Below, one piece after another: positions 2,360 to 46,732 of a stretch of 64,000 nucleotides of DNA. Origin of the DNA: a virus; IMG/VR virus record IMGVR_UViG_3300026531_000001, positions 1 to 64,000 of that record; one strand, written 5' to 3'. The notes below the pieces were generated by a model that made no database searches, was not told where the DNA came from, and saw only the letters and a program-made list of their open reading frames with translations. The position numbers and the translations under genes are program-made. Every line of letters begins with the position of its first letter. Position 1 is the stretch's first letter.

Positions 2360-3250
2360 GTGGCACGTTCGGGCAGCTACGACGTTCAGGTGCAGCTCGG
2401 GCTCCCGGGCAAGCTCGAGTCCATGCTGGCCCGGGCCATCGGCGACGTGGGGGCGGTCTTCCCCAACTCGCTACGCGCCATCAGCGCCCTCGCCGAGGCC
2501 GCGCAGCGCCGCTGGATCGCCTACGCTTCGGGGGAGCTTCCGCTGCCGAACGGCCACCGCATGCGGCGCCACACCGGGCAGTACGCCGAGAGCATCCAGA
2601 TCGAGGTGGACACGGGCGACGGCTATGTGCGCTACGTGGTCTACTCGGACGACCCAAAGGCGGCCAGCCTCGAGTGGGGCACCCCGGCGTGGGACATGCA
2701 CAAGCTCCTTTACAGCTCCCACAAGGCGCGGATCAGCAAGAAGGGGCACCGCTACCTGGTGATCCCCTTTCGTTGGGGCACCCCTGGCACGCTGGCCGTA
2801 GGGGCCTACGTTGGACGCGAGATGCCCCAGGCGGTGCACACCTGGTGGTTGCAGCAAGACCGCGAGGACTCATGGATCACCGGGGAATACGAAGAGCCCT
2901 CTATCCAGGACGAAAACGTCAAGGTGCGGCGGTTCACCTACCGCTGGGGCGACCGCCTCACCCCCAAGGACGTTGAGGAGCTGGGTCTCGACCCGAATGA
3001 GGGGGTGGGCAAGCGCCTCGTGGGAATGGTGCGGATGCGCAACCCCGAGTTCGGCTTCCTGCGCAGCGAGTACATGACCTTCCGCACCCTCTCCGAGGCC
3101 AACCCCGAGGGCTGGATGCACCCCGGGACCCCGGAGCTCGGCGTCGCCCGGGCGGTTTACGAGTGGGTGGAGCAGGTGTACCCGTCCATCATGGAGCAGG
3201 CGCTCGAGCACGACATCGAGCAGCTGAAGAAGCGCGTGGGCAACAAGTAA
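2360..3250 (+). CDS. Putative neck/head-tail joining protein
   Basis: Position before the sheath; TGQYAESI, LEWGTPAWDM, YLVIPFR and WMHPG motifs typical of myophage neck proteins. Confidence 0.6.
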   Translation: MARSGSYDVQVQLGLPGKLESMLARAIGDVGAVFPNSLRAISALAEAAQRRWIAYASGELPLPNGHRMRRHTGQYAESIQIEVDTGDGYVRYVVYSDDPKAASLEWGTPAWDMHKLLYSSHKARISKKGHRYLVIPFRWGTPGTLAVGAYVGREMPQAVHTWWLQQDREDSWITGEYEEPSIQDENVKVRRFTYRWGDRLTPKDVEELGLDPNEGVGKRLVGMVRMRNPEFGFLRSEYMTFRTLSEANPEGWMHPGTPELGVARAVYEWVEQVYPSIMEQALEHDIEQLKKRVGNK

Positions 3251-3470
3251 CGCGGGCGCGGCATGGAGCCACGCCCGCGGTGGGAGGTTGAACCCGGCTG
3301 GCGGGGAGGTCGCGCGCTGGCCAAGCGCGCCGCGCCGTTCGCATCGGGCTGGGCGGCCCGTGTCCCTATTTCCCCCTCCCAGGGTTGCGTACACGGGGGC
3401 GCCGCCGGGTTTGCTGGGGCTCGAGCACCCCGCAGCCCAAGCCTACCGCCGGCGGCCGTAGGGTGGCCTC

Positions 3471-4370
3471 ATGCCCGAGATGCGCTTCTACGTCCAGCCC
3501 ATGCCGTCCGGCGCCGCGACCCGGGTCGTGCTGGGCCTCGAGGACGGCCTCGACCCCTACGTCTACGTCACCCGGGACCCGGCACCCCCCGACCCCGCCA
3601 ACCCGGGGCCGGCGCGCGCGCTCGTCACCCCGTCGTCGCGCATCTACCCCGCCGAGGACCCCTTGCGGGTGCACCCCCACCCGCGCCTGAAGTTTCGCCA
3701 GGCCCTCGACCTGGACCGTGAGCTCGAGCTGGGACCGGTCTACTACCACCTCTTCGCCACCCCCGACCGCGGGGCCTCCTTCCTGGGCCCCGTGACCGTG
3801 AGCGTGGACGCGGCCACCCCGTCGCGCACCGCCGCCTCGTTCGCCACTCGCGACCTGGTGCGGCCGCGCCTCGACTACCACCTCGCCCGCTTCGTGGACG
3901 AAGGCCGCATCCAGCCGGCCGCCGGGTATGTTCCCGTGCTCGAGCAGGAGTCCCTGGCCAAGGACGACCCGTTGCCGGCGGTGCTCATCAAGGAGGCCAT
4001 CATCCCGACCACCTACGGGATCGGCCAGCACCGCGGGGAGTGGGTGGACAACGGCGACGGCACCGCCTACCGGGAGTTCGCCTACCGGTATCGGGCGCGC
4101 CTCGACATGCTCGTGGTCAGCGAGAACCCGGCTGAGCGCACCGAGCTCGCCAACGCCCTGCATGATGCCCTGCTCACCGACCAACCCCTGCTCGAGACCG
4201 TAGGGTATCGCGGCCTCACGATCCAGCGCATGACCCACGCCGCCCCCTCCCCTGAGGGCTTCATGGTCTACGGGGAGGAGATTACCCTTGACGGCGAAGT
4301 AGAAATGGTAGCGCGCGAAGAGCTGCGTTATGCAGTAGCCGAAATGGAGACCTTTTTCACACCGCTATGA
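3471..4370 (+). CDS. Putative tail completion/neck protein
   Basis: Leaderless promoter; structural-module position; beta-rich. Confidence 0.5.
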   Translation: MPEMRFYVQPMPSGAATRVVLGLEDGLDPYVYVTRDPAPPDPANPGPARALVTPSSRIYPAEDPLRVHPHPRLKFRQALDLDRELELGPVYYHLFATPDRGASFLGPVTVSVDAATPSRTAASFATRDLVRPRLDYHLARFVDEGRIQPAAGYVPVLEQESLAKDDPLPAVLIKEAIIPTTYGIGQHRGEWVDNGDGTAYREFAYRYRARLDMLVVSENPAERTELANALHDALLTDQPLLETVGYRGLTIQRMTHAAPSPEGFMVYGEEITLDGEVEMVAREELRYAVAEMETFFTPL

Positions 4371-4609
4371 CGCGAGGTGTCACCGTGCTCATACTTACCG
4401 ACCAACGCCACGTCTGCGTGGAGTGCAAGAGTGCTTACTTTGTTACCGCTGACGATACATATGCTGAAGGAGAAGACCTGCTAACCCATGATGTGCACCC
4501 CCTGGATCGTCACCCTACCGACCCCGCGCGCTTCCTATGCCCGGCGTGCGGTGGGGAACTCGTCAACGTCCATTGGGTAGACGAAGCACTCAGCTTGCAA
4601 GATTACTAG
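4367..4609 (+). CDS. Small zinc-ribbon protein
   Basis: CVEC...CPACGG; start overlaps the upstream stop. Confidence 0.55.
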   Translation: MTRGVTVLILTDQRHVCVECKSAYFVTADDTYAEGEDLLTHDVHPLDRHPTDPARFLCPACGGELVNVHWVDEALSLQDY

Positions 4610-4662
4610 GCCGTCTTGTAAACTAGACAGCGAGGAGGGGCCACCCTGCCCCCCTTACAACT

Positions 4663-4958
4663 GGGGCCGAAATGGATTCGACGGGGAGGGGCGATTGGGC
4701 GCTGCGGGCCGAGGAGCCGGTGGCCTCGTAAAAACCGGCACGCCATAACTGGCAACCCCATGCTCAAAGCCGCTTAGCGGCGAACACTATCGGCAAGAGG
4801 CACTGAGACCCTAACCTTCTGGTAAACGTATGCTTGACACCGCCGCACAATGGAGTGCCCGCCCAGCGTGCGGAACACAACATCTGGTAGGGCTACGCTC
4901 GTAGACGCGCTCAGTCTCCCCTTTTCGGACGCGGGTTCGACCCCCGCCGGCTCCACCA
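4663..4958 (+). ncRNA. ssrA: tmRNA; tag reading frame GNPMLKAA* at 4751-4777
   Basis: 5' GGGGCCGAAATGGATTCGAC; 3' GCGGGTTCGACCCCCGCCGGCTCCACCA; G3:U70 pair; ATAACT before the resume codon; tag ends in AA-stop. Confidence 0.93.
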
Positions 4959-38761: not shown

Positions 38762-39405
38762 ACCGCCTCCAAGTAGTGGGCCCGCTCCGGAAACATGGCG
38801 CGCAGAACGGGCTCGGCTACGCGCTGGTAGGCCGTAATCCCCAACGCGCGCAGCGCTTTGCGCAAGGTCTCTTCACGCACGTCTAGCGCATCGGCGGCAG
38901 CGTGCATCGGCAACGTCCGCGGTAGGGGCTCGAGTAGCCGATACATGAGGTTGCTACGGCTCCACCGCGCCGGAACAACGGCACCATGCTCTGGAATGAT
39001 GACCTCGTCTACACCGCCTTCCACCTCACGGTGGCGGCGAATGCCGTTGTAGCGCTCGCCCCCGTATCCGATGACCACCACCTGATCACCCGGGCGCGGT
39101 ATGAAGCTCATACCAAACTCGCGCAGGTAGTAGTAAATCTTTGACGCCGGAATGTCGAGGTCGCGCTCAACTTCCTCAACGGTGCGCCCATCACGCCGCA
39201 GCAAGGCGTTAATGAGGTGCGCTCGGGCGGGGACGGACGACCACCATATTGTGGCTGCATGGTTGTCCTCACGCGGGCGTTCAGCACGAATAAACCCCAC
39301 CGATTCGGCGTAGGTGGGGCGCTGTTTGACTACAAAGTCGGCCACATCGGGATTGCGCTCAGGATCCCGCCACTCACCCCAAGGGTCCAGATCCCTAGGT
39401 AGCAT
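38758..39405 (-). CDS. HTH-containing DNA-binding protein
   Basis: TVEEVERDLDIPASKIYYYL and MHAAADALDVREETLRKAL. Confidence 0.6.
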   Translation of the reverse strand: MLPRDLDPWGEWRDPERNPDVADFVVKQRPTYAESVGFIRAERPREDNHAATIWWSSVPARAHLINALLRRDGRTVEEVERDLDIPASKIYYYLREFGMSFIPRPGDQVVVIGYGGERYNGIRRHREVEGGVDEVIIPEHGAVVPARWSRSNLMYRLLEPLPRTLPMHAAADALDVREETLRKALRALGITAYQRVAEPVLRAMFPERAHYLEAV

Positions 39406-39616
39406 CCGCCCCCCTGAGAGCCCTTTGCAGCTTGAGCAGCGTACTGCCCCTAGCCCGCTTCAGTGCGTCGGGGCTGCTCCGGTACTGATACAAGGTCGAG
39501 CGCCCGATACCGGTTTGCGCCGCCAGCGCGTCAACCTCTGCGCCATCCATGGCAGCCAAAGCCCTATAAATCGCCCCCAGGCGGATTGTGTCGTCATTGG
39601 AAGTCTGCTGCTTCAT
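39395..39616 (-). CDS. Cro-like HTH regulator
   Basis: VDALAAQTGIGRSTLYQY; divergent from the repressor; start reassigned. Confidence 0.65.
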   Translation of the reverse strand: MKQQTSNDDTIRLGAIYRALAAMDGAEVDALAAQTGIGRSTLYQYRSSPDALKRARGSTLLKLQRALRGADAT

Positions 39617-39748
39617 GTGTCTTATTTTACAGACAGACAGACAGGCGGGCAAGATGGCCAGCATAGCCATTCGTCTTGAATAATCCGATATACTGGACTA
39701 AACTAGTAAACAAGACGCGCGTGAGAGCGCATAGCCAGGGGGGGGCTA

Positions 39749-41190: not shown

Positions 41191-41596
41191 ATACCAGTAC
41201 GAAGGGCTTATGGGCAGCGATGCTGGTAAGCCGACCGGCCCGAAAGGGCAGCTGCGCCGGGTCGTGTCCTACAAGGTGCCTGAGGATCTGTATACCGAAC
41301 TAAAGCTCGCCGCGCTGGCCGAAGGACTAACCATTCAGGGTTTCGTCGAACGAGCCCTTGCCGACTTCTTGCGGGAAATCCGCCGCAAGCCCGACGCCCT
41401 GCCACGTTATCTGCGCAACCCGCGCCCCTACGACTCGGTACGCAGCCAGCGGCTGCCGGTGGAGCTGGTTAACGTCCTGCACGATACGGTAGAGCGGCTG
41501 AACAAGCAGCGCAAAGAAAAGATCACGCAGAACAGCGTGATCCTCACGGCCATTGAGCGGGCGGTTAGATCCCGCAACGCTACAAAAGCGTCCTAA
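41180..41596 (+). CDS. Tandem ribbon-helix-helix protein (ParG-like partner)
   Basis: VSYKVPEDLYTELKLAA..EGLTIQ and SQRLPVEL...ITQNSVI; coupled to parA. Confidence 0.7.
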   Translation: MPNKYQYEGLMGSDAGKPTGPKGQLRRVVSYKVPEDLYTELKLAALAEGLTIQGFVERALADFLREIRRKPDALPRYLRNPRPYDSVRSQRLPVELVNVLHDTVERLNKQRKEKITQNSVILTAIERAVRSRNATKAS

Positions 41597-41784
41597 ATCT
41601 GAGCCAATAGCTTTCTTACCTTCGCTTGCGCGGCAGGGGGGAGGGTTTGCATTTTTTTCTGAACTACTTGAACCGCCGCAAGGATGTCAAACGTGGTTAG
41701 CTCGTGTGTCAGATGGCCCTCAGTTGCGTTTATCAACTCCCGCGCCTCGCTAGTTTCGGCTATGTTTATATCTTTCACGTTCAT
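41593..41784 (-). CDS. 63-aa helical protein, candidate effector of the peptide system
   Basis: Leaderless TACGAT-6nt-ATG. Confidence 0.6.
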   Translation of the reverse strand: MNVKDINIAETSEARELINATEGHLTHELTTFDILAAVQVVQKKMQTLPPAAQAKVRKLLAQI

Positions 41785-41796
41785 GGCCTAATCGTA

Positions 41797-41872
41797 GCAC
41801 CCACTGCATGGGCAATGGGTGCTTTTGGTGCACGAATAATAACAGTCCCGTAACAGTCGTTTAGTAACAGCC
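41797..41872. promoter_or_regulatory. Inverted repeat (41797-41822) plus three TAACAG direct repeats (41840, 41851, 41865)
   Basis: GCACCCA-c-TGC-atgg-GCA-a-TGGGTGC; TAACAGTC twice at 11-bp spacing, then TAACAGCC. Confidence 0.6.
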
Positions 41873-41953
41873 AGGGCACGGATCCGCCAAAACGTGCGAG
41901 AGCATGAGACCTAGAGCCAGTAGAAGGAGTACGGTTGCAGCTACTCGTTTCAT
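41861..41953 (-). CDS. Secreted pro-peptide MKRVAATVLLLLALGLMLSHVLA|DPCPGCY (putative signalling peptide)
   Basis: Hand-translated; basic n-region, hydrophobic h-region, V-L-A SPase I site; TAGGGT-6nt-ATG leaderless start. Confidence 0.8.
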   Translation of the reverse strand: MKRVAATVLLLLALGLMLSHVLADPCPGCY

Positions 41954-41962
41954 GGCTGTACC

Positions 41963-43399
41963 CTAGACGCTCTTGTGGACAGAACGCAACACAGGGGCGC
42001 GGCCTTCGATCTCATCGAGGACACTAGACCACGCAGACGCCTGCCTGCGGTGCAATTCGCTGGCCCGGTGGTACATTGCCCGGGCCACCCGGTGCAGCGT
42101 TCCCAGGTTCACCACGCGCTCAGGGGAAAGCCCCTCACGCTCGAGGTAACGGCGGTAGCGAGACACTTGGGCATTGTATGCCTTCGGCAGGTCTTCTGTC
42201 GCCCCGCCGGCGGCCTCGAGGAGCATGCGGCGCGTTAGGTTGTCGGGCGCCTTGATTGTAGACCCGTTACGCACGACCTTGCCTTCGGTCAGAAGCGGCA
42301 ACGATGCAAAGGCACCGGCCAAATCGGGGTGCGCTTCGGGGTGAATGGATAACGCCCCAAGTGCGTCGGGCATATATACCGCCATCGCTCGCAAAACACC
42401 GGTAGCCGACACTAGTTCGCCCATGGCATCATTAGCGGTATATATCACCTGCAGCGGGTCATACGGCGTGAACGCATCGCCGCCCACGGCACCGAAGGCA
42501 ACGAGTGCGACCCCAGCCCAGAAGATGCGCTGGTCGGGGTAGGCCGGCGGTTTTTCGCCGATGTGCCGTACGGCCGCGCTGGGATGCCCACGGCGGATCA
42601 TCCCGTAGGCGCGCAACACACGGGCATAGTCGTGATAGGGGGGTGTTTCGATCAGCCCCGGCATAAACGACCGGTCAAGAAGCGCACGCGCTAGTCGTTC
42701 CTGGTGGCTGTCTCCCTCCGGGGGTTCGATTCCTTCGATACACGCTAGCGCACCAGCCAAGGCGCGGATCGGCGGGTCTTCGTTTGCGTCGCGATATGCG
42801 CGCTCATAATCCCCGCGACCGAGCCGCATCTCAACCAAGGTTCGTAACCCCCAGCTACGCAGTCGCGGGTGCTTGCTGCGCAACTCAGCCCATACCCTGG
42901 CCATGGCGTCGGGGTCAGGTGCTCCCATCAGACCCCGAATGCGCAGTTCGTCTGCTCGCAGCATCGGCATGCGCTGCGTGAGCCGCAGCACTCGAGCTAT
43001 ATACGACGCCACGAAGTAGTAACCAAGTGCCTCATAGAAGCGTTTAAGTTCAGTGGCCGCCAACCCGCGCGCCACGGCATCGTACATGGAGTCTTCGAGC
43101 TCGAGGGGGGTCAATACGTCTACCGGGGCCGGCTCAGACGCTAGCACGCGCTCATACGCCCCGACACCCACCCGGGCCAACCGCCGGAGCCCATAAGCCG
43201 GCGGCCCTTCGGCCGGATCGAGTTCGTGAAGGGCATCGTAAAAGCGCCCTTCGCGCATTAGCAATATGGCGCGGCGAGCACGCACGATTGAGTCGTTGTG
43301 GTCAAACCCGTCTAAGTCGCTCAGTTTGAGCGTGTACCCGATAGCGTCCCAGCGGGCAGGATCTTGCAAGTCGTCATAAGTTATCGCTGCTACTGCCAT
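41963..43399 (-). CDS. TPR-like helical protein with possible C-terminal DNA-binding helix (putative peptide receptor)
   Basis: Repeated helices GRFYDAL, KRFYEALGYY, GDYERAY, GHPSAAV; NAQVSRYRRYL near the C-terminus. Confidence 0.6.
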   Translation of the reverse strand: MAVAAITYDDLQDPARWDAIGYTLKLSDLDGFDHNDSIVRARRAILLMREGRFYDALHELDPAEGPPAYGLRRLARVGVGAYERVLASEPAPVDVLTPLELEDSMYDAVARGLAATELKRFYEALGYYFVASYIARVLRLTQRMPMLRADELRIRGLMGAPDPDAMARVWAELRSKHPRLRSWGLRTLVEMRLGRGDYERAYRDANEDPPIRALAGALACIEGIEPPEGDSHQERLARALLDRSFMPGLIETPPYHDYARVLRAYGMIRRGHPSAAVRHIGEKPPAYPDQRIFWAGVALVAFGAVGGDAFTPYDPLQVIYTANDAMGELVSATGVLRAMAVYMPDALGALSIHPEAHPDLAGAFASLPLLTEGKVVRNGSTIKAPDNLTRRMLLEAAGGATEDLPKAYNAQVSRYRRYLEREGLSPERVVNLGTLHRVARAMYHRASELHRRQASAWSSVLDEIEGRAPVLRSVHKSV

Positions 43400-44175
43400 A
43401 CTGTGATCTCACGCTCCCTGAAGTTTTTACCATGTTTGAACGCCAAAACCACTACGGGCTTGAGACGATCCCATATCCGCCCCCCAAGGTACTGCTCGAG
43501 GGAGCCGCTGCGGGTGCTTTTTGCACCAACCGGCAAGTTGGTGGTGATGAGCGTGGGGCGCTGTGCCTGGTTGCGCGCCTCGAGCGCTAGGTAGAGCAGG
43601 CGCCGCTCGAGTTCCGCATTGCGCGTTTCGCCGGCCCCCACATCATCGAGGAGCAGCAGGTCAGGGGCGCTCATGAGCCGTATGGCCTCATTTTCGGAAA
43701 TGCCCTTCCCACCATTCCAGGTCGAGCGCACCTCAACCCCCAAACGACCAATATTGACCACGCGCGCCTCATAACCTGCGCGCACCGCCGCCTTTATCAA
43801 GAGCAGCGCGCTTTGCGTTTTTCCTGATCCGACGGGACCCGTGAACACAGCCGATTCGCCCCGCTGGATCAGATCGCCGACCTTTTCGGCTACCCGCCGT
43901 ATCTTCGGTAGCGGCGGCACCATTTCCAGGTCGTCCCACTCGATTTCTAAGTAACGTTCAGCGATGCCTGCATTCTGCAAACGGCGTTTGAGCATGGCCT
44001 CTGCCTTGCGCGCTTGGCAAATGGGGCAAACCACCCATTGGCCCTCTTCGTTCTCAATCATGCCGTCAGAACATACGTGGTCGCTCTCGGGCGGCTGTGT
44101 TTGTTGTACCGTTCGAGTTTTTAGCTCGGCCAGGAAGGGGTTGATCGTTTCCGCCGCGCGCTTCGCCTCACCCAT
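43390..44175 (-). CDS. DnaC/IstB-like helicase loader ATPase
   Basis: C...CPIC, GPVGSGKT, LLLLDDVG, ITTN and RIWDRL motifs. Confidence 0.88.
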   Translation of the reverse strand: MGEAKRAAETINPFLAELKTRTVQQTQPPESDHVCSDGMIENEEGQWVVCPICQARKAEAMLKRRLQNAGIAERYLEIEWDDLEMVPPLPKIRRVAEKVGDLIQRGESAVFTGPVGSGKTQSALLLIKAAVRAGYEARVVNIGRLGVEVRSTWNGGKGISENEAIRLMSAPDLLLLDDVGAGETRNAELERRLLYLALEARNQAQRPTLITTNLPVGAKSTRSGSLEQYLGGRIWDRLKPVVVLAFKHGKNFREREITVWQ

Positions 44176-44176
44176 G

Positions 44177-45223
44177 TCACTCCTCCTCGATGTAAACGCC
44201 CCGCATGTCCACATCTACGCCGTCGGAGGCGGCGGCAGGAGCCACGACCGCCCCCGATCGTCGAACCCGGCGGCCCGATTTCGGATCGTCACGAACGACG
44301 CTGATGATCCAGGAAAACGGGTGCTGCACGTCAGGCGCGAGCGCCAAACGCTCGACTGCGGTTTTTACCCTCTCGGCGCCGTCGTCATAGTCCGCAACGA
44401 CGCGCGAGAGCTGATCCAGCCAGTCATGCCATGCACGCGCCGAGCGCGCCTCGCGGCGGAGCGCCTTTAAGCCATCCCAGGCATCCGCTTCGAGCAGGGC
44501 GGCCAACATCTGAGCGCGAAGTTCTGGCGCGCCGCGCAGCGCATCATGGAGTACGCGGTCGGCCATCGCCTCCGGGCGCGCGAAGGCGGCGCGGAACGTT
44601 TGAATCGCCGCCAAGGGTTCGCGCGCGCTCCCGTGGTGGGAACCCTGCGCCCCTGGGTCGGGTTGAGCGGGCGTGTCCCTCGATGTTTCATGAGCTGGAT
44701 GAGTGGAGGTAACATCTTCTTCTTCTTCTTCCTTTGTCTTTTTCTCTAGGTCTTTTTCTATTTGTTTTTTTCGGCCGGGATTTTGGGCCTGTTTTTCCCG
44801 TCCAGCACGCGCGCTGTCATGCGCACCATAGGTCTCTCTCTGAGACCCATTAGGTCTCTCTCTGAGACCTATGGGGTCTCTGTGTGATACGTATCCCCCT
44901 GATACGTCTCTCTCTGAGACCTGTTTCACGGTTGGAGTTTGGAGGATTTGATAGACGTTCCGCTTCCCGTCGCGCCAACGGGACACATAGCCGTGCTCTT
45001 CAAGTTGCTTCAGGGCGCGGAACACGGCCGCTCGGCTGATGCCCGTCAAGCGCTCAATGGTTTCGATTTTCGGCCATGCCTGGCGGTCTCGATCCGAGAA
45101 CCGGAGCAGGACGATGTATACCACCGCAGCATGCGGGCCCATTTGCGCCAGGTGGCCATGGTCTACGAAGTCGTTGGGGGCCCACCAAAACCCGCGTGTC
45201 CTGCCATCCTCAAGCCGATCCAT
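44177..45223 (-). CDS. Replication initiator (N-terminal winged HTH)
   Basis: AWPKIETIERLTGISRAAVFRALKQLEEHGYV; internal iterons; upstream of the loader. Confidence 0.82.
   Translation of the reverse strand: MDRLEDGRTRGFWWAPNDFVDHGHLAQMGPHAAVVYIVLLRFSDRDRQAWPKIETIERLTGISRAAVFRALKQLEEHGYVSRWRDGKRNVYQILQTPTVKQVSERDVSGGYVSHRDPIGLRERPNGSQRETYGAHDSARAGREKQAQNPGRKKQIEKDLEKKTKEEEEEDVTSTHPAHETSRDTPAQPDPGAQGSHHGSAREPLAAIQTFRAAFARPEAMADRVLHDALRGAPELRAQMLAALLEADAWDGLKALRREARSARAWHDWLDQLSRVVADYDDGAERVKTAVERLALAPDVQHPFSWIISVVRDDPKSGRRVRRSGAVVAPAAASDGVDVDMRGVYIEEE
44716..44921. repeat. Putative origin: iterons GTCTCTCTCTGAGACC plus T-rich tract
   Basis: Copies at 44832, 44854, 44876 (degenerate) and 44906; T-rich 44716-44772. 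Confidence 0.75.
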
Positions 45224-45668: not shown

Positions 45669-45766
45669 TTCGAGACCAGTCTATGCACATGCCTAGGCGT
45701 CTGTCAACCCCGCGTCAAATGCTTGCAATCCAGAGTAGTGGACGGTAGATTGAAGGAGGGGGTCGA

Positions 45767-46304: not shown

Positions 46305-46379
46305 TGGTAGCGGGAGCGGGAATCGAACCCGCGACCTCCAGGGTATGGGCCTGGCGAGCTACCGCTGCTCCATCCCGCA
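46305..46379 (-). tRNA. tRNA-Met(CAT), initiator-like
   Basis: TGCGGGATGGAGCAGCGGTAGCTCG CCAGG-CCCATAC-CCTGG...GGTTCGATTCC...ACCA; 1:72 mismatch. Confidence 0.88.
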
Positions 46380-46383
46380 GCAT

Positions 46384-46473
46384 TGGCGGTGGGGGCAGGA
46401 TTTGAACCTGCGGCGCCCCAGAGGGCGCGCCCGGTTAGCAACCGGGTGCCTTAAGCCGCTCAGCCACCCCACC
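46384..46473 (-). tRNA. tRNA-Ser(GCT)
   Basis: CCCGG-TTGCTAA-CCGGG, long variable arm, G73, CCA. Confidence 0.92.
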
Positions 46474-46568
46474 GGAGCCCCGTTCACCCCTACGCCTAGC
46501 CACCTGGGGGGGGGTGGACAAGGCGGCAAGCCGGCATACACCGACGGTTCGGCGTAGGGGGTAGGGGT

Positions 46569-46644
46569 TGGTGGACGCGACAGGATTTGAACCTGCAACC
46601 TGCCGGGTGCAAACCGGCCGCTCTCCCGTTAGAGCTACGCGCCC
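46569..46644 (-). tRNA. tRNA-Ala(TGC)
   Basis: GCCGG-TTTGCAC-CCGGC, G3:U70, CCA. Confidence 0.93.
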
Positions 46645-46646
46645 AT

Positions 46647-46732
46647 TGGCGGAGGGGGCAGGACTCGAACCTGCAACGGCTACGCCGCCCCGATTTTCGA
46701 GACCGGTTGCCGCACCTACTGGCGACCCCTCC
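46647..46732 (-). tRNA. tRNA-Ser(CGA)
   Basis: CCGGT-CTCGAAA-ATCGG, long variable arm, G73, CCA. Confidence 0.9.

Follow-up and report, generated by a model that had tools for sequence, protein, structure and literature searches.

Candidate viral peptide communication outside the Bacillus group: a receptor-like TPR protein paired with a putative Sec-exported D-P-C-x-x-C peptide in Deinococcota phages, proviruses and plasmids

The stretch of DNA analyzed here (henceforth the window) comprises positions 1 to 64,000 of IMG/VR virus record IMGVR_UViG_3300026531_000001, a complete 80.7-kb record with direct terminal repeats. The phage was obtained from a hydrothermal-vent metagenome and an identical phage is present in a second study. 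Three genes lie in a row on the minus strand of the window: a gene encoding a receptor-like TPR (tetratricopeptide repeat) protein of 478 aa (41963..43399), a pre-peptide gene of 30 codons plus stop (41861..41953; MKRVAATVLLLLALGLMLSHVLADPCPGCY) that begins 9 nt after the receptor stop codon, and, 76 nt after the peptide gene, a gene encoding a 63-aa helical protein of no known family (41593..41784), which holds the position of the output gene in arbitrium, the peptide system of SPbeta/phi3T-like Bacillus phages. The coordinates assigned to these three open reading frames (ORFs) in a first-pass annotation, made from the letters of the sequence, all proved exact on re-reading.

The 30-codon product divides into the n-, h- and c-regions of a Sec-type signal peptide, MKR / VAATVLLLLALGLML / SHVLA (41885-41953, minus strand), followed by the predicted mature heptapeptide DPCPGCY (41864-41884), which would be released by a cut after VLA. 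The first-pass annotation had described it as a Sec signal peptide with only these seven residues as cargo; all three regions are indeed present, and the same type of peptide recurs in every related locus examined.

An exhaustive HMMER search yielded 72 full-length relatives of the 478-aa protein, one at 50% identity and the others at 20-31%. Comparison at the DNA level was based on five independent loci, i.e. the window, L002, L011 and the plasmids of Deinococcus QL22 and KNUC1210, whose receptors are 23-49% identical. L002 is a 79-kb sister phage from a vent, its receptor being labelled Oceanithermus sp. in NCBI, and L011 is an IMG/VR provirus; the QL22 plasmid carries two identical copies of the module, which were counted as one locus. 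The host had been guessed to belong to Deinococcus-Thermus, and both the Oceanithermus label and the Deinococcus plasmids fit that guess.

In all five loci a signal-peptide mini-ORF lies directly 3' of the receptor gene, either 9 to about 30 nt past its stop codon or overlapping it, as had been anticipated for homologues of the module. The n-region is invariably basic, the h-region spans 11-15 residues and small residues occupy positions −3 and −1, while a lipobox is present in none (judged heuristically and by eye). The C-termini read DPCPGCY, DPCPGCV, DPCLGCYL, DPCPWCRP and DPCLGC. Six-frame translation of each locus yields a single D-P-C-x-x-C, invariably located at the C-terminal end of the mini-ORF, and conservation is concentrated in the last 6-8 residues, the signal and pro-regions being divergent. 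When the window is compared with L002, every one of the six DPCPGC codons is changed, with six synonymous and zero non-synonymous changes, although the signal peptides have diverged; because the motif codons differ synonymously only, selection acts at the protein level. The Deinococcus versions have a non-hydrophobic pro-region of 20-25 residues between the signal peptide and the conserved C-terminus. Candidate signal peptidase I (SPase I) sites are VLA|D and ANA|D. The mini-ORFs are unannotated in the RefSeq plasmids.

About one third of the genes in Deinococcus-Thermus are leaderless, with a TANNNT −10 element about 6-7 bp before the start codon (PMC12340547). Such a hexamer is found 6-7 nt before the peptide-gene start in all five loci; for the ATG triplets of the window in general, the background rate is 1.6%. 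The −10 element of the peptide gene in the window is TAGGGT (41960..41965, minus strand), 6 nt before the ATG; its counterparts are TAAGGT in L002, TATGAT in L011, TATGCT in L004 (ahead of a GTG start) and TACGCT in L005, the KNUC1210 plasmid. In both vent phages the hexamer opens with the three bases of the receptor stop codon. The 63-aa gene, likewise annotated at first pass as leaderless, has TACGAT (41791..41796, minus strand) 6 nt before its ATG, and L002 has TAAAAT at the same distance. A terminator-like hairpin, consisting of an 11-bp stem followed by UUUUCUUU (U-run), is recognizable as an inverted repeat and by folding about 50 nt past the 63-aa stop codon (41508..41545, minus strand), in the 3' end of the convergent RHH (ribbon-helix-helix) gene; a weaker terminator-like site overlaps it. 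Since each gene has a TANNNT of its own and this hairpin with its U-run follows the 63-aa gene, both the peptide gene and the small gene appear to be leaderless units with promoters of their own.

A crude signal-peptide test is passed by about 2% of the short ORFs in this GC-rich window, so signal-peptide likeness alone is weak evidence. Together with the lack of a strong Shine-Dalgarno sequence ahead of the mini-ORF, this would suit a chance frame in a GC-rich spacer. Such a reading is refuted by the comparative data, as position, signal peptide, C-terminal motif and −10 element are kept in five loci and the motif changes are synonymous only, and we give it practically no credence. For the same reasons of conservation we regard the 30-codon mini-ORF, as judged from sequence comparison, as a real gene.

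The mini-ORF is followed by the direct and inverted repeats that had been reported at first pass. The tandem direct repeats (41840..41869, minus strand) consist of TGTTAC at 41864-41869, TGTTAC at 41850-41855 and TGTTA at 41840-41844, spaced 14 and 11 nt, and form a candidate regulator-binding site; the first copy coincides with the Cys-Tyr codons of the peptide gene. TGTTAC direct repeats with 11-nt spacing are found downstream of the peptide gene in four of the five loci. A single match to TGTKA-N5/6-TGTKA is present in the complete 80.7-kb genome and, in the 79-kb, 71.5-kb and 189-kb records, there is one match per module and none elsewhere, with zero occurrences of the reversed control pattern. 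In the four loci the gap between the last repeat and the −10 element of the small gene measures 21, 21, 32 and 42 nt. These gaps differ in steps of one helical turn and the repeats would therefore keep to one side of the DNA helix, near −39/−50/−60/−71, a geometry upstream of the −10 element that is, as far as spacing indicates, of the activator-site type. The repeats appear to go with the promoter of the small gene, because the KNUC1210 module has neither. Candidate binders are the C-terminal domain of the receptor, the small protein or a repressor, any of which could occupy the site.

Other roles for these elements were considered. The spacings and key bases of TGTTAC are inconsistent with a −35 or −10 hexamer, and replication iterons or a partition site are unlikely, as the repeats accompany the module in Deinococcus elements without nearby rep or par genes. 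A 12-bp palindrome or hairpin, AGCACCCATTGC-CCAT-GCAGTGGGTGCT (41796..41823, minus strand; fold z −2.2), abuts the −10 element of the 63-aa gene. It was rejected as a conserved operator or terminator, since the window contains it only once and conservation is lacking in L002, L011 and L004. A search of Rfam over 41400-42100 returned no family.

A small gene with its own −10 element follows the peptide gene in four of the five loci. The L002 counterpart of the 63-aa protein is 35% identical, and the small genes found at the same position in L011 and L004 are weakly alignable. In the window, the 63-aa gene converges on the operon of the RHH (ParB-like) and ParA genes with a 4-nt overlap. The small-gene transcript would run about 90 nt antisense to this partition operon, ending in the coding end of the RHH gene (41508-41600). 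On the KNUC1210 plasmid (L005, NZ_CP092193, 6626-6700) the small gene is replaced by a gene encoding a 993-aa STAND/MalT-like AAA-TPR protein. A TANNNT of its own (TAGCAT) precedes the ATG of this gene by 6 nt, and TCGTCCA is repeated there 31 nt apart, the proximal copy lying about 21 nt before the −10 element, which is how TGTTAC is placed in the other Deinococcus loci.

AlphaFold2 (AF2), supplied with the 72-sequence alignment, gave a model of the 478-aa protein that is all-alpha and of TPR type (pLDDT 95.6, pTM 0.93); the single-sequence AF2 model was uninformative (pLDDT 43). In the model, residues ~5-365 form a TPR superhelix, 369-383 a three-stranded beta-meander and 386-476 a C-terminal domain of helices. 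Consensus TPR is matched by the family profile at E 6e-10, and generic TPR repeats are matched by only a few of the homologues. The helical-repeat character ascribed to the protein at first pass is thus borne out by both profile and model. In a Foldseek-independent search of 48,161 representative chains, ranks 1-3 were taken by SPbeta AimR (Z 14.2), NprR (12.9) and RapI (11.9), and PlcR, phAimR, phi105 Rap and ComR were also returned. In a second-look structure search, ranks 1-11 went without exception to RRNPP receptors, with Z falling from 14.3 to 11.7, and generic TPR proteins followed from 11.6 on; among these receptors were AimR (Z 14.3, over 287 aa at 4.2 Å), phi105 Rap (13.5), RapJ (13.1), NprR (13.0) and phi3T Rap (12.8). 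A whole-protein search of the ESM Atlas returned generic TPR clusters only, and no meaningful match was found among the viral structures of BFVD. As an N-terminal hydrophobic signal is found in 0 of the 72 homologues, the receptor is taken to be cytoplasmic. No Cys or His is conserved among these homologues, and the C-terminal domain of about 110 aa carries the conserved motifs VNxG..R and W457. On the strength of the model, the 478-aa protein is best described as a TPR protein of the cytoplasm that, among solved structures, comes closest to AimR, Rap and NprR, all of them RRNPP receptors.

The module is embedded in the genome of a tailed phage that encodes a large terminase and a sliding clamp of its own, along with a tmRNA and four tRNAs. 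A minus-strand operon runs from a promoter-like site near 45707 through a 147-aa gene, the replication initiator gene (382 aa) and a gene encoding a DnaC-like helicase loader (274 aa; 43390..44214, minus strand; PHROG 50 at E 5.6e-39, Pfam IstB_IS21) to the 478-aa gene. In line with the coupling to the initiator/loader operon proposed at first pass, the loader stop overlaps the start of the 478-aa gene by 10 nt, and the L002 phage is arranged alike. Beside the module, on the opposite (plus) strand, a repressor-like gene, parA and then the RHH gene follow one another, so that the parA and repressor neighbours noted earlier are in place as well. From the gene order, the module appears to be fused to the initiator/loader replication operon in both vent phages; in the window it faces the ParA-RHH-repressor operon. 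In the Deinococcus loci no replication genes lie beside the module, which adjoins a convergent HTH (helix-turn-helix) repressor-like gene and a cro-like gene. A tyrosine recombinase gene is located outside the window, at 72039-72485 of the whole record (Pfam Phage_integrase, E 1.3e-23). Judged by ParA, RHH, the repressor-like gene and this recombinase, the phage appears to be of the temperate type. The recombinase accompanies ParA/RHH and could serve either for integration or, in a plasmid-type prophage, for dimer resolution.

Arbitrium of the SPbeta/phi3T-like Bacillus phages resembles the module in being phage-borne and in its order of receptor gene, short gap, Sec pre-peptide with the active part at the C-terminal end, regulatory spacer and a gene for 50-65 aa. 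The gaps are of different length, phi3T having aimR-(30 nt)-aimP-(132 nt)-aimX as against 9 and 76 nt in the window. Structurally, the receptor is matched best by the TPR domain of AimR (Z 14.3, 287 residues, rmsd 4.2 Å), and both modules sit within a lysogeny-control neighbourhood. In contrast to AimR, the receptor has no N-terminal HTH but an extra C-terminal domain of about 110 aa, and there is no AimR sequence homology. Whereas mature AimP peptides are Cys-free hexapeptides, the peptide described here has a two-Cys D-P-C-x-x-C core. The tandem direct-repeat candidate operator, the leaderless genes and a Deinococcota host with an outer membrane further set the module apart.

The Rap-Phr systems, including the phage Raps of phi3T and phi105, likewise consist of an HTH-less TPR receptor gene followed by a small secreted pro-peptide gene on mobile elements, and Rap structures align from residue 7-10 on (Z 12.2-13.5). 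The N-terminal 3-helix bundle of Rap acts on response regulators, however, and Raps are without the C-terminal domain of the module; Phr peptides have no Cys pair, the systems are known from Bacillota only, and no sequence similarity to the module was detected. The chromosomal systems NprR-NprX and PlcR-PapR of the B. cereus group share the principle of a cytoplasmic TPR receptor for an exported, C-terminally processed and re-imported peptide (NprR Z 13.0, PlcR Z 11.1), but differ by an N-terminal XRE-type HTH and by control of virulence and necrotrophism genes, again in Bacillota only. The candidates of RRNPP_Detector, which come from chromosomes, plasmids and phages, also have a TPR receptor next to a small propeptide that is secreted (PMC10075063). 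That survey portrays such peptide systems as characteristic of Gram-positive Bacillota (Bernard et al. 2023; PMC10075063), and RRNPP/arbitrium systems are at present treated as a Bacillota speciality (PMC10075063; PMC13389391). In the literature searched, no paper was found that ties RRNPP or arbitrium to Deinococcus or Thermus.

These comparisons qualify the arbitrium-like character claimed at first pass. The layout of receptor, pro-peptide and small gene is real, the receptor-peptide pair recurs in five of five loci and the receptor has a TPR fold; membership of the AimR family is not sustained. Because there is no sequence kinship to AimR, 'arbitrium-like' denotes a possible mode of action and not membership. 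Sequence comparison shows that the TPR protein and the Sec-signal pre-peptide gene with its D-P-C-x-x-C end stay together in phages, proviruses and plasmids of Deinococcota, which makes this conserved pair a strong candidate for viral peptide communication outside the Bacillus group. We favor, with confidence somewhat above even, the interpretation that the pair belongs to an RRNPP/arbitrium-type peptide-signalling module; that its carrier is a temperate phage-plasmid of a Thermales-like host is part of this interpretation and seems probable to a similar, limited degree.

Under such a model, the pre-peptide would be exported by the Sec pathway and cut after VLA to give DPCPGCY, export and cleavage being the steps most strongly suggested by the data. 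In the vent phages signal peptidase would free the peptide directly, whereas in Deinococcus the pro-region of 20-25 residues would first have to be trimmed to the C-terminal core. The peptide would accumulate outside with the number of infected or lysogenic cells, and its external form may, speculatively, be a Cys3-Cys6 disulfide loop. By analogy with known systems, it would then be taken up again, e.g. by an oligopeptide permease, and bind the concave groove of the TPR superhelix. Binding would switch the output of the receptor, the preferred output being control of the leaderless 63-aa promoter via TGTTAC, with DNA contact likewise proposed by analogy. The 63-aa product might finally, and this is speculative, tip the balance between lytic growth and plasmid-like lysogeny or replication.

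Several observations weigh against this interpretation. The five loci compared at the DNA level represent only a small share of the family (5 of 72 homologues), and one of them, KNUC1210, does without both the small gene and TGTTAC. Z scores of 12-14 are attainable by unrelated helical repeats and the margin over generic TPR proteins is small; Foldseek against the PDB alone gave generic TPR matches only, at E > 1e-3. An N-terminal HTH is absent, no HTH family being matched, and since the alignment starts only at AimR residue 41-43, the HTH domain of AimR has no counterpart here. Alignment of the family profile with phi3T AimR using hhalign gave a probability of 0.2%, i.e. no sequence relationship, and the 478-aa protein has no match in Pfam (including any Pfam RRNPP family), PHROG, PADLOC or NCBIfam. 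A C-terminal DNA-binding element (NAQVSRYRRYL) had been suggested at first pass; it finds no backing, as the C-terminal 113 residues (366-478) match no known DNA-binding fold or family in the ESM Atlas or in a PDB profile search. With neither an HTH nor such a match, a link between the receptor and TGTTAC can only be inferred, and another protein may bind the repeats. The host, moreover, has an outer membrane and an S-layer, which the peptide would have to cross on its way out and back in. Finally, arbitrium and Phr peptides diversify into private codes. Here the DPCxxC core is kept across receptors of about 25% identity, which fits classical arbitrium least well and could mean that the peptide has a chemical role (redox or metal) instead of being a signal.

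This last point leads to an extracytoplasmic effector as an alternative, in which the product would be a non-returning thiol-redox or metal-binding CxxC mini-peptide, periplasmic or secreted, or a surface-modifying or exclusion factor, and the TPR protein a cytoplasmic regulator or an unrelated neighbour that never binds it. CxxC is a classic redox and metal motif, the invariance of D-P-C-x-x-C at 23-28% receptor identity suits chemical constraint better than a private code, and the receptor has no conserved Cys or His able to pair with the peptide. We nevertheless consider an effector of this kind improbable, given the strict adjacency and gene order in five of five loci despite otherwise different neighbours and the fact that the best structural matches of the neighbouring protein are peptide-binding receptors of secreted-peptide systems. 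In addition, variation is seen within CxxC (PG, LG or PW) and behind it (Y, V, YL, RP or no tail), as would be expected of positions that set specificity. A purely intracellular or membrane device appears more doubtful still, and we regard it as very unlikely; here the 30-aa product would stay in the membrane as an uncleaved helix, acting as a small toxin or as a holin-like or exclusion peptide, or would be sensed before export, with the TPR protein as sensor or antidote in the manner of a defence or addiction module. In conflict systems, short hydrophobic peptides do occur beside sensor-like repeat proteins, and plasmids and phage-plasmids such as the present carriers would gain from addiction. 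Against this stand the good SPase I sites and the lack of a PADLOC family match; furthermore, because a non-hydrophobic pro-region precedes the C-terminus in the Deinococcus versions, it is the exported tail and not the helix that is conserved.

If the peptide does return to the cytoplasm, the receptor could still act in the manner of Rap. The HTH-less protein would then sequester or inhibit a protein partner, for instance the repressor, the initiator or loader, ParA/RHH or a host regulator, the secreted and re-imported peptide would free this partner, and TGTTAC would be bound by another factor. Such a scheme agrees with the missing N-terminal HTH, with the alignment of phi105 Rap, phi3T Rap and RapJ/RapF from their N-termini (Z 12.2-13.5), with the translational coupling of the receptor gene to the loader/initiator genes in two phages and with a C-terminal domain that bears no DNA-binding signature. 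It accounts less well for the finding that, around TGTTAC in four divergent elements, the only shared features are receptor, peptide and small gene. The extra conserved C-terminal domain of about 110 aa (VNxG..R and W motifs), which Rap proteins lack, and the Deinococcus modules, which are not beside replication genes, also argue against it, and overall we think it unlikely, to about the same degree as the effector. A precursor of a ribosomally synthesized and post-translationally modified peptide (RiPP) was also considered and found unlikely, in view of the Sec signal, the lack of a maturase nearby and the lack of a PADLOC or NCBIfam match.

Returning to the RRNPP/arbitrium-type interpretation, a more detailed and correspondingly more tentative version, which we consider possible but would not bet on, is that the module represents the first phage peptide communication beyond Bacillota, with a secreted, redox- or metal-gated signal of the heptapeptide class built around D-P-C-x-x-C (a disulfide loop outside, reduced inside) and an HTH-less TPR receptor whose novel C-terminal domain acts on TGTTAC phased to a leaderless promoter, deciding between lytic growth and plasmid-type lysogeny in extremophile hosts with an outer membrane. 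Should a peptide system prove to work in Deinococcus-Thermus phages and plasmids, peptide-signalling logic would have arisen or spread far beyond Bacillota and would operate across an outer membrane and at high temperature, and the Cys-x-x-Cys peptide would constitute a new chemical class of signal whose redox state could carry information. The module lends itself to experiment, as the cultivable Deinococcus QL22 and KNUC1210 carry plasmid copies, the peptides are of a length that can readily be synthesized, and the positions of the candidate operator and promoter are known to single-base precision.

Attempts to extend the set of loci added little to the five described above. Searches with sub-family alignments gave no new loci in viral, metagenome or genome contigs, the L002 contig alone being found again among the metagenome contigs, and a ParA query likewise returned only the L002 contig. 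A word-index protein search with the 478-aa protein retrieved only the protein itself, tblastn against GenBank phages gave no match and a peptide-profile search gave no scorable match. The L002 phage appears in the databases under several names (L002, L003 and L012): its 79,030-bp contig is listed both as an IMG/VR virus and within a metagenome-assembled genome of a 'Polyangiaceae bacterium' (JALVDI010000386.1), and in NCBI a near-identical copy bears the name Oceanithermus sp. Faulty binning seems to account for the Polyangiaceae assignment. The 189-kb plasmid of Deinococcus sp. QL22 (NZ_CP097156.1) contains the receptor and the TGTTAC site twice, at 3116-4765 and 97532-99181 (L006 and L008), with equal scores, as might result if a large part of the record were duplicated internally or if a phage-like element were present in two copies.

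Elsewhere in the window, tmRNA and tRNA loci were located at 4663-4958 and 46305-46732. The tag encoded by the tmRNA is GNPMLKAA, and the four-tRNA cluster comprises Met, Ser-GCT, Ala and Ser-CGA, with a 95-nt spacer between two of them. In a 91-aa HTH-like ORF at 39395-39670, four tandem CTGT units (minus strand, 39631-39646) abut a TAAAAT −10 element that lies 7 nt ahead of an internal ATG (MKQQTSNDD...). The true start of this ORF is probably the internal, leaderless ATG, and the CTGT repeat may serve in regulation of the switch region.

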